Shown one piece after another: positions 37,422-47,751 of a stretch of 64,000 nt of DNA. The notes under the pieces were generated by a model that ran no database searches, was not told the DNA's origin, and was given only the letters and a program-made list of their open reading frames with translations. Source of the stretch: a phage; sequence record PX880103.1; one strand, 5' to 3'. The stretch's first letter is position 1. The number at the start of each line of letters is the position of its first letter. Made by a program: the position numbers and the translations under genes.

Positions 37422-37751
37422 TCAATTAGAAAATAAATTTATCCAAGATTGTTCTTTAATTAAAAATGGCTCAGAATCATATGCCATTAAACTTTGGGTG
37501 ATTAGTCCTTTAAAAGGCCCATCAATAAATTCCATGGTAAAATATGGAATTTTATTCATTAACTTTGCATTAGGAGCAGTACACAAAACTCTACATCCTT
37601 TGAATACACCTTTTTGTAATTTGTATTGCTTAGGATAAAATTCGCTCAAGACGTTGTTATTTGCCAAAATTTCAAAATGATTCACCAATTTATTTTTAAT
37701 AGTTTTTGGCGAAAAATAAAGATATTCGAAAAGTTGTGTGTCTGTCATCAT
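37422..37751 (-). CDS. Hypothetical protein
   Basis: 109 aa ORF. Confidence 0.45.
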   Translation of the reverse strand: MMTDTQLFEYLYFSPKTIKNKLVNHFEILANNNVLSEFYPKQYKLQKGVFKGCRVLCTAPNAKLMNKIPYFTMEFIDGPFKGLITQSLMAYDSEPFLIKEQSWINLFSN

Positions 37752-38335
37752 TGCATTCCAATTACGAAAAACTGTGGACGAGTAATACCATCAATGCAAC
37801 ATTTACTGTTGCAGCAGTGTTGTACAGTTTCAATATGAATATCGTAAATTTTATCCATATCAGGAGATTTAACAGGCTCATCGATTATATACAAAATCCG
37901 CGAAAGCGATAAACCTCTGAACTTGCTACCTCTATTACCAACAAAACTACGGACAGAATCAGTAAATAAACGGAATCGAATATCATCGCTAGAATAACGA
38001 GAAAATTCTTTTTTAATGTTGCCAGCAGAAATTTTAGCATAAGCTGAAGTATTAGAAAGAACAATAACTGTTCCGCCGTCATACAGCCAATTAGCAGCGA
38101 AGTTAGTCACAGCAGTTGATTTACCAGATTGACGTCCACCATCTAGTCGAAGTGTGCAATACTGCTTAAGTAAGTCTTCAAATGGCGGGATATAATCATT
38201 TTTACAAATTTCTTCTACTCTAGCATCAGAATGGTGTGTAAAAGCATTCATCAGGGATAGATAAGGACCAGTTAAAAATGTTCTCATTTTGTTCTCTCTA
38301 AATTTGGGCCATTCCGTGGCGCATGAATTGTCCAT
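37748..38335 (-). CDS. Small P-loop NTPase
   Basis: Walker A GGRQSGKST and Walker B ILYIIDEP; true start may be the internal Met at 38287. Confidence 0.5.
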   Translation of the reverse strand: MDNSCATEWPKFRENKMRTFLTGPYLSLMNAFTHHSDARVEEICKNDYIPPFEDLLKQYCTLRLDGGRQSGKSTAVTNFAANWLYDGGTVIVLSNTSAYAKISAGNIKKEFSRYSSDDIRFRLFTDSVRSFVGNRGSKFRGLSLSRILYIIDEPVKSPDMDKIYDIHIETVQHCCNSKCCIDGITRPQFFVIGMQ

Positions 38336-38506
38336 TTCTGTATTTACCCATTACCGCACTTGGGCTCGACCTTATTACAGGTTGGCGGGAATCCCTCACA
38401 GAATCATGAGGTCCAGCTTGTTCCCATGTTATTTGAATGTAAATATTTTTGCCTTAATACTTATACCAGTGTGGCTTCATTAAAATTTTTTCATCGAGTC
38501 ATTTTA
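38336..38506 (-). pseudogene. Possible remnant of the denV (endonuclease V) locus: promoter, SD and a 3-codon ORF (MTR-stop) followed by non-coding, relatively GC-rich sequence
   Basis: Minus strand reads GGAGAGG-N5-ATGACTCGATGA just downstream of an early promoter; T4 endonuclease V begins MTR; no ORF of 60 aa or more in 38336..38559. Confidence 0.3.
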
Positions 38507-38523
38507 CCTCTCCAAGTAATTAT

Positions 38524-38559
38524 GAATATACTATCACAATTTTAGGAGAAAGTAAACTG
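38524..38559 (-). promoter_or_regulatory. Early promoter
   Basis: Minus strand AACAGTTTACTTTCTCCTAAAATTGTGATAGTATATTC, directly after ipII stop. Confidence 0.55.
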
Positions 38560-38862
38560 TTATTTACCTTTAATTACTTTAGCTGCTTCGATAGCCGCTT
38601 GCTGAAGGTCATCCATAGACATACCGAATTTAGAAGCAAAGTTATCAATTTTCTTTTCGACAGCATTCAAAGGCTTGGCCTGTTTACCTTCATTAGCGCC
38701 AGGAAGAGCGAGAATACGCTCTTTGTCAATATAAAGGCTTACAAGTTTCTTACGGTCTTTATCGGACAAATCATGAAATGAATGGGCCTTTTTATTTATA
38801 GCGGCTTCTAATTTACCTGCACTCACTCGCGCTTCAGTAATAAATTCTTGATATGTTTTCAT
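38560..38862 (-). CDS. ipII: Internal protein (IPII-like) with capsid-targeting leader
   Basis: Starts MKTYQEFITEA (cleavable capsid targeting sequence); 100 aa; position downstream of ipIII. Confidence 0.6.
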   Translation of the reverse strand: MKTYQEFITEARVSAGKLEAAINKKAHSFHDLSDKDRKKLVSLYIDKERILALPGANEGKQAKPLNAVEKKIDNFASKFGMSMDDLQQAAIEAAKVIKGK

Positions 38863-38903
38863 ATGTTTCCTTTAAATGTAAATAGGCCTAAGTATCGGCC
38901 TTA

Positions 38904-39482
38904 TTAATTACCACGGGCTGCATTAGCAACGGCATAAGCGTACTGAACATTAGCGTCCTTAAACGTACCTTTAGAGGTATCTATTTCTGCCTTAAAGCCG
39001 CCTTTAGCCATAACATCGGCAAATTCTTTACGGAAAGCCATTGCATCAAGACCTTTCCATGATGATTTGTGCTTGGCGAATTCAAGACCAGCGTAGTTGA
39101 CAGCCTTAGCTAATTTATTATCAATGACCCATTTACCGGCTTTAGGCACAAACTTCGGACCTTTTTGTTTAGAGAACAGTTTTAAATTCCAGCGACGAAG
39201 ATCACTGTCGGCTTTAACAAAAGCTGCGTCTAAGTTACTAGCAACAACATCTTCAATATGAGCAAATTTAAGTCCGTCAACTTCAATATTTAAATCGGTA
39301 CGCCAGCGAAGTCCTTCCCAAGCGAAAGCTTTAAAATCGGAAGCTTTTGTAGCTAAGTATCGTTCAATAGGGGCTGTTTTAGGGTCAAAGCCGTTTCCAC
39401 CACGATAGTTCCACTCATCTTTATTAATGCCTTTGGCCTTTACTACAGAAGCTTCAGCGATAAATTCTTTATACGTTTTCAT
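38904..39482 (-). CDS. ipIII: Internal protein (IPIII-like) with capsid-targeting leader
   Basis: Starts MKTYKEFIAEA; 192 aa. Confidence 0.6.
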   Translation of the reverse strand: MKTYKEFIAEASVVKAKGINKDEWNYRGGNGFDPKTAPIERYLATKASDFKAFAWEGLRWRTDLNIEVDGLKFAHIEDVVASNLDAAFVKADSDLRRWNLKLFSKQKGPKFVPKAGKWVIDNKLAKAVNYAGLEFAKHKSSWKGLDAMAFRKEFADVMAKGGFKAEIDTSKGTFKDANVQYAYAVANAARGN

Positions 39483-39498
39483 GTGTTTCCTTTAATTT

Positions 39499-39816
39499 TT
39501 ATTCTTTAGGGAAGTTTTTAGAATATGCATCATAAAGCTTATTTCCAATACGGCGGAAAACTCTAGCCGCAAAACGATTTTCTGGGTTTTTAATCATGAT
39601 TTGCATCATATAAGTACCCGCGTCAGAAAGAGCTTCTTCATAGTACCCGTTAATTTCTTTAAGAGTCCTACGTTTACCACCAGGACCATCAACAGTGATT
39701 TTCCATTTACCCGTAGAAGTGCGACTTGGCGGCTCAACTTGTTCAATCCAGATATAACCGCCTTCTACACGTTGTCCTGCAGCAGATTCTGCAATAAATT
39801 CTTGATATGTTTTCAT
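39499..39816 (-). CDS. Additional internal protein with capsid-targeting leader
   Basis: Starts MKTYQEFIAES; 105 aa; lies between e and ipIII. Confidence 0.55.
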   Translation of the reverse strand: MKTYQEFIAESAAGQRVEGGYIWIEQVEPPSRTSTGKWKITVDGPGGKRRTLKEINGYYEEALSDAGTYMMQIMIKNPENRFAARVFRRIGNKLYDAYSKNFPKE

Positions 39817-39866
39817 GTGTTTCCTTTAAATATTTTAATTAGTAATTTATCTATTCAAGTAACTGT

Positions 39867-39902
39867 GAATATACTATCACAATTCCAAGAGAAAGTAAAC
39901 AG
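39867..39902 (-). promoter_or_regulatory. Early promoter
   Basis: Near-identical to the 38524..38559 copy; upstream of the extra ip gene. Confidence 0.55.
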
Positions 39903-39904
39903 CT

Positions 39905-40873
<969 letters not shown>

Positions 40874-43603: not shown

Positions 43604-44167
43604 TTATTTACCTAGTTTAGTTATTATAGCTTCGGCAGCAGCTTTTAGCTTAGATGCAGTGTTAATACGATTTTTAATTTCAGTATAAGCATCGCCAAGA
43701 ACATCAAGGCTATCAGAATAAACACTTACACTATTGCGTTCGCTATTTGAAATAGAACCTTTAGTTTTACGATCAAAATCAGTGTACACATCTTGAAGAT
43801 CGCGGGCTGCCTTCTTTGCATCATCTAACGCATCAAGAGCTTTATTCAAAGCATTGACATATTTTTTAGTATCAAACATATTCTTAGAAATTTTGACAGG
43901 TGCGCGTTCAGGAGTAGCTAAGGCAGATTTAGGAACCTGAGCGCCTGATGCTAATTTCTTAGAAATTTTGAAAAATGCTTTATTGAATTTATTTTCTTGA
44001 CTCATCGTAAAAGAACTATTATCAATGTTATACATTTCAATAGCTTTAGCTTTCCACTTAAGAAAATCGCCACGGTCTTTTGGGTCCAATTGGAAGAATA
44101 CTTTAGTAAGATCTGCTTCAGATGGTAATTTTGCTGCTTCGGTTAAAAATTCGGCATAGGTTTTCAT
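43604..44167 (-). CDS. Candidate internal protein with capsid-targeting-like leader
   Basis: Starts MKTYAEFLTEA, same leader pattern as the ip genes; 187 aa; followed by a terminator. Confidence 0.5.
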   Translation of the reverse strand: MKTYAEFLTEAAKLPSEADLTKVFFQLDPKDRGDFLKWKAKAIEMYNIDNSSFTMSQENKFNKAFFKISKKLASGAQVPKSALATPERAPVKISKNMFDTKKYVNALNKALDALDDAKKAARDLQDVYTDFDRKTKGSISNSERNSVSVYSDSLDVLGDAYTEIKNRINTASKLKAAAEAIITKLGK

Positions 44168-44939: not shown

Positions 44940-45425
44940 TTATTTTATGTAATATTTATTTAAAAACTTTCTAGCTTGAGTATGGCTAACATTTATAGCG
45001 TTTGCATAATTTTTAATAAAACCTCGTTCATCCATATTAAAATTTTCTAATATTTTTAATCGTCTAGTTATCTCATCTTGACTTAAGGTACTTGCATTAT
45101 TTTTAGAAATTTTTTCTAAGGACTGTGCCGAGTGTTTTCGACCATTAAAATTAAAATTTTTAGATTTTGGAGGAAATCTAGCATTTAATCTCGCATCTTT
45201 TGTATTTTGATTATTAGTTGCGCAATATATGTTATTTAATGAATATGGTCCTTTATCGCCGAAACGGCACATGCAGTATTCATGACCCTTTCTTCCACGC
45301 TTATCATAATTTCCCGTTGATTTCCACCAATGCAACCATTCATCAAAAGTTAAATTCCATTCAATGTTTCTACGTATAGCAGAATTCCGCTGAGAAATAT
45401 ATTTTGCATAATCTTCTTTCATCAC
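44940..45425 (-). CDS. Putative HNH-family homing endonuclease-like protein embedded in the tRNA cluster
   Basis: 161 aa; GHEYCMCRFGDKGPYSLNNIYCATNNQN cysteine/Asn-rich nuclease-like core plus C-terminal helix-turn-helix-like tail; free-standing between tRNA sub-clusters. Confidence 0.45.
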   Translation of the reverse strand: MMKEDYAKYISQRNSAIRRNIEWNLTFDEWLHWWKSTGNYDKRGRKGHEYCMCRFGDKGPYSLNNIYCATNNQNTKDARLNARFPPKSKNFNFNGRKHSAQSLEKISKNNASTLSQDEITRRLKILENFNMDERGFIKNYANAINVSHTQARKFLNKYYIK

Positions 45426-45817: not shown

Positions 45818-46450
45818 TTATTTATTACGTGAAAAAGACTGTTCTATCAATTCTGGACACTTTCGTTCTATCCATTTTCTAGCTTTTTGTGGGCTTATAC
45901 CTATTATTTTAGCAGCTTTACTAACCCATCCAAATTTAGAATAATCGATTTTAACTAATTCTTCGTAAATTTCATCAGTTAAAATCTTTTCATTAATATT
46001 TACCAGTAAATGATATAATTTATTATCATTAGCAATTTTAATGAATCTTTTATAGTTTCCGCCTTTACTTAAACCTAATGAAGTAATTGCAGATGATATA
46101 GTAGCCGAATTTAATAGCGCGTTTAAAATTTCTTCATCACTAACATTATAACGCTTTTTATTATTTTTAATATTTTTACCAGCAAAAGTATCAGTTTGCG
46201 AATGGCAGTTTGGACATAATAATCTTAAATTAGATTTAAGATGATTTTTGTTATTTCCATCAATATGGTCTAATTGCAGAACAATATGCTTATTTTGCCA
46301 TTTTGAAATTTTACAAATTGCACACTCATATGGAAAAATATTTTCTTTTATTATTTTGTCTTTCAGCTTTCCTGTACTAAAATTTGGATGTTTTCCTTCA
46401 AAAATTTCAGCTAATTTAGTATCCATAATATAATTCCCAATTATTAACAA
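45818..46450 (-). CDS. HNH homing endonuclease
   Basis: CAICK...LQLDHIDGNNKNHLKSNLRLLCPNCH: classic zinc-bound HNH motif; lies immediately upstream of tRNA-Leu. Confidence 0.6.
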   Translation of the reverse strand: MLIIGNYIMDTKLAEIFEGKHPNFSTGKLKDKIIKENIFPYECAICKISKWQNKHIVLQLDHIDGNNKNHLKSNLRLLCPNCHSQTDTFAGKNIKNNKKRYNVSDEEILNALLNSATISSAITSLGLSKGGNYKRFIKIANDNKLYHLLVNINEKILTDEIYEELVKIDYSKFGWVSKAAKIIGISPQKARKWIERKCPELIEQSFSRNK

Positions 46451-47493: not shown

Positions 47494-47751
47494 TTATTTT
47501 AAATCTTCTAATCGTTTCTTCATCTTAGAACCGTTCTTAGCGATTTCGCCTGCATCAGAGCATAATGCTAAAAGTGCTTTAACTTTAGTTTGGTCTCCTT
47601 TAAAAGATGAAGGATCAACAGCAGCAGCAAGTTCTTTAATACGAGAGAAAAGACGCTCAGCTTCAGCTAAAGCCATTCCAAGCTTTACTTCCATACCGTG
47701 GGAAGATTCAGTGATAGTAGTTTTTGTAGCAAACTCTTTGAAAGTTTTCAT
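47494..47751 (-). CDS. Small protein with capsid-targeting-like leader at the ipI locus
   Basis: Starts MKTFKEFATK; 85 aa; immediately upstream of 57B. Confidence 0.5.
   Translation of the reverse strand: MKTFKEFATKTTITESSHGMEVKLGMALAEAERLFSRIKELAAAVDPSSFKGDQTKVKALLALCSDAGEIAKNGSKMKKRLEDLK

Follow-up and report, generated by a model that had tools for sequence, protein, structure and literature searches.

The third leader-bearing gene of an internal-protein locus in a T4-like phage belongs, as judged from its sequence, to the known Ip10 family

Internal proteins are the first phage proteins in the host cytoplasm, and all three T4 representatives disarm different type IV restriction enzymes. 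The phage DNA studied here (hereafter the window, i.e., the whole 64,000-nt stretch that was analyzed) carries three adjacent ORFs that open with a leader of the internal-protein type, which the initial annotation had read as IpII, IpIII, and one gene extra relative to T4. What the third gene is, how it came to lie beside the other two, and what its product may do in an infected cell are the questions that this locus raises. In a megablast comparison, region 38300-40500 of the window matches 876 phage records, mostly Tequatrovirus, with ~95% identity to T4, which identifies the source of the window as a T4-like phage on sequence grounds. The minus strand carries the genes of the 37748-40399 region, which from high to low coordinates are e, a 105-aa ORF, ipIII, ipII, a remnant of denV, and vs.8. 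The principal features are as follows, with a slash marking the predicted cleavage site:

39905..40399, minus strand: e (lysozyme), conserved anchor on the upstream side of the locus
39499..39816, minus strand: ip10, encoding a 105-aa precursor that begins MKTYQEFIAE/SAAGQR; 100% identical to PP01 Ip10; phrog_3966
38904..39482, minus strand: ipIII, encoding a 192-aa precursor that begins MKTYKEFIAE/A; 94.3% identical to T4 IpIII
38560..38862, minus strand: ipII, encoding a 100-aa precursor that begins MKTYQEFITE/A; 93.0% identical to T4 IpII
37748..38335, minus strand: vs.8 homologue, conserved anchor on the downstream side of the locus

All three leader-bearing ORFs are present side by side as had been annotated, and the naming of two of them as IpII and IpIII, originally made by size, is borne out by their sequence identity to the T4 proteins as well; their PHROG matches have E values of 4.5e-55 (IpII) and 1.8e-117 (IpIII). 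It was also correct to call the third gene one extra relative to T4, because the same locus in T4 has the order e-ipIII-ipII-denV-vs.8, without a third ip gene. BLASTP detected no mutual similarity among IpII, IpIII, and the 105-aa protein beyond residue 10 (E > 1), and a 58-nt block comprising the ribosome-binding site and the leader is found in three copies of 76-84% identity, one per ip gene (repeat family D1). The leader common to the three ORFs is evidently not due to chance.

The third gene proved to be one that already has a name. Its 105-aa product is 100% identical to the "Ip10 internal head protein" of phage PP01 (BBC14463.1) and matches phrog_3966 over residues 1-105 (E = 2.7e-34), while full-length homology extends to the other proteins named Ip10, i.e., those of VR25 (Gaprivervirus; AIZ02470.1, ~72% identical) and SP18 (71% identical in a sequence search). 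By tblastn, ip10 is present in 190 phage records from four Tevenvirinae genera, 132 of them at ≥95% identity (42 at ≥99% and 90 at 95-99%), which makes it one of the commoner orphan cassettes; T2, T4, and T6 do not appear among the matches listed. The RB69 (Mosigvirus) copy, RB69ORF124c, is 95% identical to the window protein and lies between e and vs.8, and Karamvirus-type copies from phages of Enterobacter, Klebsiella, and Cronobacter are ~52% identical. The position of the gene is equally characteristic. In Tequatrovirus, Mosigvirus (RB69), and Gaprivervirus (VR25), ip10 occupies the variable locus between e and vs.8 with different ip neighbors each time, and its location within the variable ip locus of the window (e to denV/vs.8) is also the one that it has in PP01, RB69, VR25, and LYE-01. 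In comparison with Ip10 of PP01, VR25, SP18, and RB69, the protein, the leader, and the e-vs.8 locus are all the same and only the neighbors differ, these being ipIII and ipII in the window, ipIV in PP01 (e-ip10-ipIV-vs.8), and an 87-aa leader-bearing ORF plus ip7 in VR25 (e-ip5-denV-ip10-ORF-ip7-vs.8). In the Karamvirus-type loci L008 and L009, ip10 lies within a row of leader-bearing ORFs, and e and vs.8 were not identified there. LYE-01 has the same gene order as the window (vs.8-ipII-ipIII-ip10-e, with every gene labelled hypothetical), the ip10-ipIII junction was found in at least 16 records, and the e-ip10-ipIII-ipII trio itself is already present in published genomes, LYE-01 being one example. 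Calling the third gene additional is consequently right with regard to T4, from which it is absent, and wrong as far as novelty is concerned: it can be assigned to the known Ip10 family, and there is no new element here, only a known gene that most of its records, LYE-01 included, label just "hypothetical protein". The diversity of ip genes was first described by Repoila et al. in 1994. We also observed a longer, leader-bearing variant of the Ip10 family in an IMG/VR contig of a 175-kb T4-like phage (L010, 3785-4234, plus strand), which encodes 149 aa, of which residues 73-148 are 33% identical to the Ip10 core and ~11-72 lie outside the match.

The sequences on either side of ip10 point to its arrival as a single unit beneath a promoter that was already in place. 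The relevant features are:

39846..39914, minus strand: early promoter and inverted repeat between e and ip10, near-identical to the T4 e-ipIII intergenic region (copy 2 of repeat D2)
38884..38901, minus strand: small G+C-rich hairpin AGGCCGATACTTAGGCCT between ipIII and ipII, taking the place of the T4 promoter and stem-loop there
38503..38571, minus strand: second copy of the promoter and inverted repeat, 69 nt and 80% identical to 39846..39914, just downstream of ipII and before the denV remnant (repeat D2)

The promoter upstream of ip10 is of the sigma-70 type, with a -35 element TTTACT at 39899-39894, a 17-nt spacer, a -10 element TAGTAT at 39876-39871, and a TG before the -10. A generic promoter scan made no call upstream of ip10 (score 8/12 at a threshold of 9); the promoter was identified via its identity with the T4 sequence. 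In a side-by-side comparison, the 88-nt e-ip10 intergenic region follows the T4 e-ipIII region nearly base for base and does so on through leader codon 10, the shared elements being the promoter GTTTACTTTCTCTTGGAATTGTGATAGTAT, the overlapping inverted repeat GAATTGTGA...TCACA(A/G)TTC, the ribosome-binding site AAAGGAAACA, and the ten leader codons. In the T4 record X04567, this region bears annotations of a stem-loop and of potential -10 regions. The initial annotation had credited the 105-aa ORF with its own early promoter, and a promoter is indeed present, but the same sequence precedes ipIII in T4; ip10 lies behind the T4 ipIII promoter, which is resident in the locus, and did not bring it along. 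Downstream, only 16 nt separate the ip10 stop codon from ipIII, and these carry just a ribosome-binding site. The start-to-start distance of the ip10 and ipIII leader repeats is 334 nt, i.e., the 318-nt gene plus the 16-nt spacer, marking ip10 as a one-unit insertion relative to T4 that is bounded by leader sequences. Judged by this spacing, ip10 is a 334-nt cassette whose insertion separates ipIII from the resident promoter, ribosome-binding site, and leader.

With respect to expression, the late signals closest to the ip genes on the upstream side are two perfect late promoters TATAAATA that lie ahead of e, with starts at 40433 and 40420. No perfect TATAAATA was found directly upstream of ip10, ipIII, or ipII, the only perfect intergenic sites nearby being those that precede e. 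Following T4 biology, early transcription of ip10 would start from the sigma-70-type promoter at 39871-39899 and late transcription would reach it via read-through from the e late promoters, and the late synthesis required for prohead assembly is probably supplied by this read-through from e.

Much of the arrangement recalls the PeSL cassettes (Arbiol 2010; Comeau 2014, PMC4122927), which mediate module shuffling in T4-like genomes and among whose early examples the authors count the ip locus (PMC4122927). As in PeSL, an inverted repeat overlaps with an early promoter that has the TTTACW-N17 pattern, two 69-nt copies of this block flank the ip genes, and the gene content between conserved anchors varies among phages; the two promoter copies around the trio appear consistent with promoter-stem-loop shuffling. 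Unlike PeSL, however, the edges of the ip10 indel are ribosome-binding site and leader repeats (58 nt, three copies) rather than promoter blocks, and the -10 element TAGTAT differs in its third base from TAYWAT, the published consensus. The two D2 69-nt direct repeats bracket the whole ip10-ipIII-ipII block, whereas the ip10 indel itself is bounded by leader repeats, and the likely crossover sites therefore lie in the coding leaders. By analogy with Ip1, Ip2, and Ip3, cassettes would be gained and lost whole by recombination at shared leaders and promoter blocks, and adaptation to the host would proceed in this manner rather than by rapid sequence change. Two side observations concern the outer repeats: recombination between the two D2 copies would remove ip10, ipIII, and ipII together, and the T4 promoter sequence at the position downstream of ipII differs from the D2 copy. 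Behind the intact promoter, denV (endonuclease V, UV-damage repair) is deleted at 38430-38502 on the minus strand, where its start ATG-ACT-CGA-TGA remains together with ~20 decayed C-terminal codons that include an internal stop. The same deletion junction is found in W143, SH-2, N2, SP1, and HX01, and an intact denV lies between e and ip10 in W143, RB69, and VR25.

The N-terminus of the Ip10 precursor carries what would be required for entry into the head:

39787..39816, minus strand: capsid-targeting leader of ip10 (codons 1-10), with the predicted gp21 site I-A-E/S; part of the 58-nt repeat D1

According to the mutational rules of the IpIII leader, residues 4 and 7 serve targeting and residues 8 and 10 processing, with gp21 cutting after the Glu of L/I-X-E, and the ten leader residues alone are enough to package foreign proteins (PMC9026906; PMC3012670). 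The Ip10 leader MKTYQEFIAE/S fits the general pattern MKTY-x-EF-(I/L)-x-E, with aromatic residues at 4 and 7, and has Tyr4 and Phe7 for targeting as well as Ile8 and Glu10 for cleavage, and the gp21 site that the initial annotation had proposed to look for after the leader is found at its end as I-A-E/S. Removal of the leader would yield a mature protein of 95 aa and 10.8 kDa with 16 Lys+Arg and a predicted pI of 9.60 (vs 9.66 for IpII and 9.65 for IpIII), i.e., a small basic protein like its neighbors. On the T4 model, the leader would attach the precursor to the scaffolding core of the prohead, gp21 (the prohead protease) would cleave after Glu10 to leave the 95-residue basic protein, and mature Ip10 would remain amid the packaged DNA and enter the host with it. 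Literature searches found no report of Ip10 in virions, cleaved or injected, nor on its function; from the leader and its site, packaging, cleavage, and injection are all strongly expected. The precursor has one more L-x-E motif, LKE at residues 52-54, which reads IKE in the VR25 type and IKD in the Karamvirus type. This motif falls in a predicted strand of the folded core, where it could be an additional gp21 site. Ip10 is therefore similar to T4 IpI, IpII, and IpIII in having a 10-residue leader with a gp21 site and a small basic mature part, and in sitting in the same variable loci with the same expression signals. It differs from them in that its mature part has no sequence similarity to theirs and no GmrSD variant has been reported as inhibited by it.

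A leader and an intact reading frame could also belong to a decaying passenger cassette that is neither packaged nor functional, and some copies of ip10 do show damage: the one in RB69 appears frameshifted, with a match in two pieces and an annotated ORF of only ~90 aa, and a truncated, frameshifted copy exists in the protein database (P0004). The window copy, however, is intact and 100% identical to many others, and the resident promoter is accompanied by a strong ribosome-binding site (AAAGGAAACAC-ATG). Moreover, we found ip10 to be under purifying selection, because synonymous changes far exceed non-synonymous ones. The window and W143 copies differ by 28.5 synonymous and 3.5 non-synonymous changes (dN/dS 0.02), the ratios against the 72% and 52% relatives are 0.25 and 0.21, respectively, and the full range across comparisons is 0.02-0.35. 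Such a predominance of synonymous change also speaks against a passenger, a reading that we regard as scarcely credible. As a side observation, the proteins of the window and W143 copies (the latter at L001 3780-4094) are ~99% identical at a dS of ~0.65, and Ip10 is unusually constrained for a presumed arms-race gene, its variation appearing as presence or absence of the cassette. This conservation fits cassette turnover, and it fits a housekeeping role equally well.

Ip10 might instead be mainly a structural component, a basic head filler that neutralizes DNA charge or aids core and prohead assembly, a role suggested for IpIII, with no specific host target. Its pI of 9.6, its 16 Lys+Arg, and its strongly conserved sequence would all suit such a role, and in T4 each internal protein is present in hundreds of copies with lysines touching DNA phosphates (PMC3012670), while polyheads accumulate in IpIII and triple-ip mutants (PMC9026906). 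On the other hand, ip10 is found in a minority of T4-like phages (190 records vs the 876 that match the region) and is freely exchanged with unrelated cassettes, which is unexpected for a structural need. The AlphaFold model of Ip10 is of moderate quality (mean pLDDT 63.7, but ~80 for residues 21-76) and consists of three strands followed by a long helix. It has a compact folded core, and of the conserved motifs GGYIWIE, KITVDGPGGKR, and FAAKVFRR, the first two suggest a specific binding surface in this model. A mainly structural function is accordingly something that we consider quite improbable.

Searches beyond the family returned little that could narrow the function of Ip10. Only four 90%-identity clusters were found among 5.8 billion proteins, and the family appears to be confined to Tevenvirinae. 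An exhaustive HMMER search with leaderless Ip10 against 1.84 billion representatives returned the Karamvirus-type member and five large repeat proteins only. The latter were rejected as homologues because their scores add up many weak matches to differing short Ip10 segments; four of the five were scanned and contain RTX, filamin, Calx-beta/CBM60, and SdrD-B repeats, and the fifth shows a short tandem repeat in pairwise alignment. Pfam gave sub-threshold noise only for Ip10 (e.g., CsgH at E = 0.088), PADLOC gave no match, and a sequence search of the PDB gave nothing below E = 0.1. Fold searches with the Ip10 model likewise found nothing specific and no likeness to known inhibitors, and mature Ip10 has neither sequence nor fold similarity to Ip1, Ip2, or Ip3.

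Beyond the e locus, the window has two more ORFs with a leader, the first of which was found in a six-frame scan:

43604-44167, minus strand: 187-aa ORF with the canonical leader MKTYAEFLTE/A (Tyr4, Phe7, Leu8, Glu10) and a mature pI of 9.5
47494-47751, minus strand: 85-aa Ip5 homologue, just downstream of 57B; phrog_3499 "internal head protein", named Ip5 in RB14

The 187-aa ORF corresponds to RB14ncORF136c (phrog_2280, unknown function) and lies between e.6/e.8-type genes and the tRNA cluster, outside both recognised ip loci. The ORF was matched in 165 phage records, with identities of 85-100%, is called "hypothetical protein" throughout among the matches listed, and, to judge from its leader and charge, has the appearance of a hitherto overlooked internal protein encoded at a third locus. 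The leader of Ip5 is atypical, MKTFKEFATKTTITE/S, in that the first L/I-X-E is at residues 13-15 instead of 8-10. A 48%-identical relative of Ip5 adjoins e in W143, and similar ORFs occupy that place in RB69 and VR25. Since relatives of Ip5 lie beside e as well as beside 57B, one cassette family is present in both ip loci. No T4-type ipI was found in the window, and an approximate T4 IpI sequence matched at the leader only.

As there are no homologues or specific folds outside the family, the function of Ip10 has to be approached by analogy. Ip1 inhibits the GmrSD of strain CT596, and a 2025 study showed that Ip2 and Ip3 block two further and highly divergent GmrSD enzymes, without cross-protection (PMC12373910). 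These three proteins are alike in their leader only, yet each blocks a different GmrSD, and a similar role against GmrSD variants has been proposed by the authors for the other ip genes at both loci (PMC12373910). IpIII is active in the cytoplasm even without its leader (PMC9391042). The suggestion that internal proteins include anti-restriction factors, so that an extra one may target a host defense, is by this analogy the leading hypothesis for the class. For Ip10 itself, we consider it probable that the protein is an injected inhibitor of one specific early-acting defense nuclease, most likely a GmrSD subtype outside the tested panel. In a new host it would, like Ip1, Ip2, and Ip3, bind and block this nuclease, which is most likely a type IV restriction enzyme of the GmrSD kind with glucosyl-hydroxymethylcytosine DNA as its substrate.

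The plating on type IV restriction hosts that had been suggested as a check has in essence been performed. When ip4-10 were assayed against representatives of 15 enterobacterial GmrSD groups, with ip10 equated there by name, no reproducible inhibition was obtained, and only eight of the 15 systems were active against T-even phages (PMC12373910). The same negative result would be expected if Ip10 were an injected anti-defense protein with a non-GmrSD target, i.e., another early-acting system that meets the modified DNA or the injection itself. Ip10 is also unlike Ip1-3 or any known inhibitor in sequence or predicted fold, and its gene is also carried by phages whose isolation hosts were Enterobacter, Klebsiella, and Cronobacter; its target should therefore be widespread in Enterobacteriaceae. 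Nevertheless, all three characterized internal proteins act on GmrSD variants, and the lack of a hit among 15 representatives carries little weight because the known Ip inhibitors are strictly specific, which leaves a non-GmrSD target as an unlikely alternative in our estimation. Only tentatively would we go along with a broader proposal, in which Ip10 blocks an early-acting defense other than the GmrSDs hit by Ip1-3. This defense would be either a GmrSD subtype outside the tested panel or an immune system of another class that attacks modified DNA on entry. The orphan fold of Ip10 would then represent a new inhibitor architecture, and the phage would inject five proteins (Ip5, ORF187, Ip10, IpIII, and IpII) from three loci. 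Once found, the target of Ip10 would add a matched pair of defense and counter-defense, and it would aid host-range prediction for T4-like therapeutic phages.

The tRNA cluster has two additional ORFs inside it or at its border, one at 44940-45425 (minus strand, 161 aa) and the other at 45818-46450 (minus strand, 210 aa). The former has no Pfam match and the latter a weak, sub-threshold HNH match (E = 0.0057). Both occupy the positions of tRNA-Thr and tRNA-Gln in RB14, and the window has 8 tRNA genes vs 10 in RB14, which suggests that homing-endonuclease-type insertions replaced tRNA genes.
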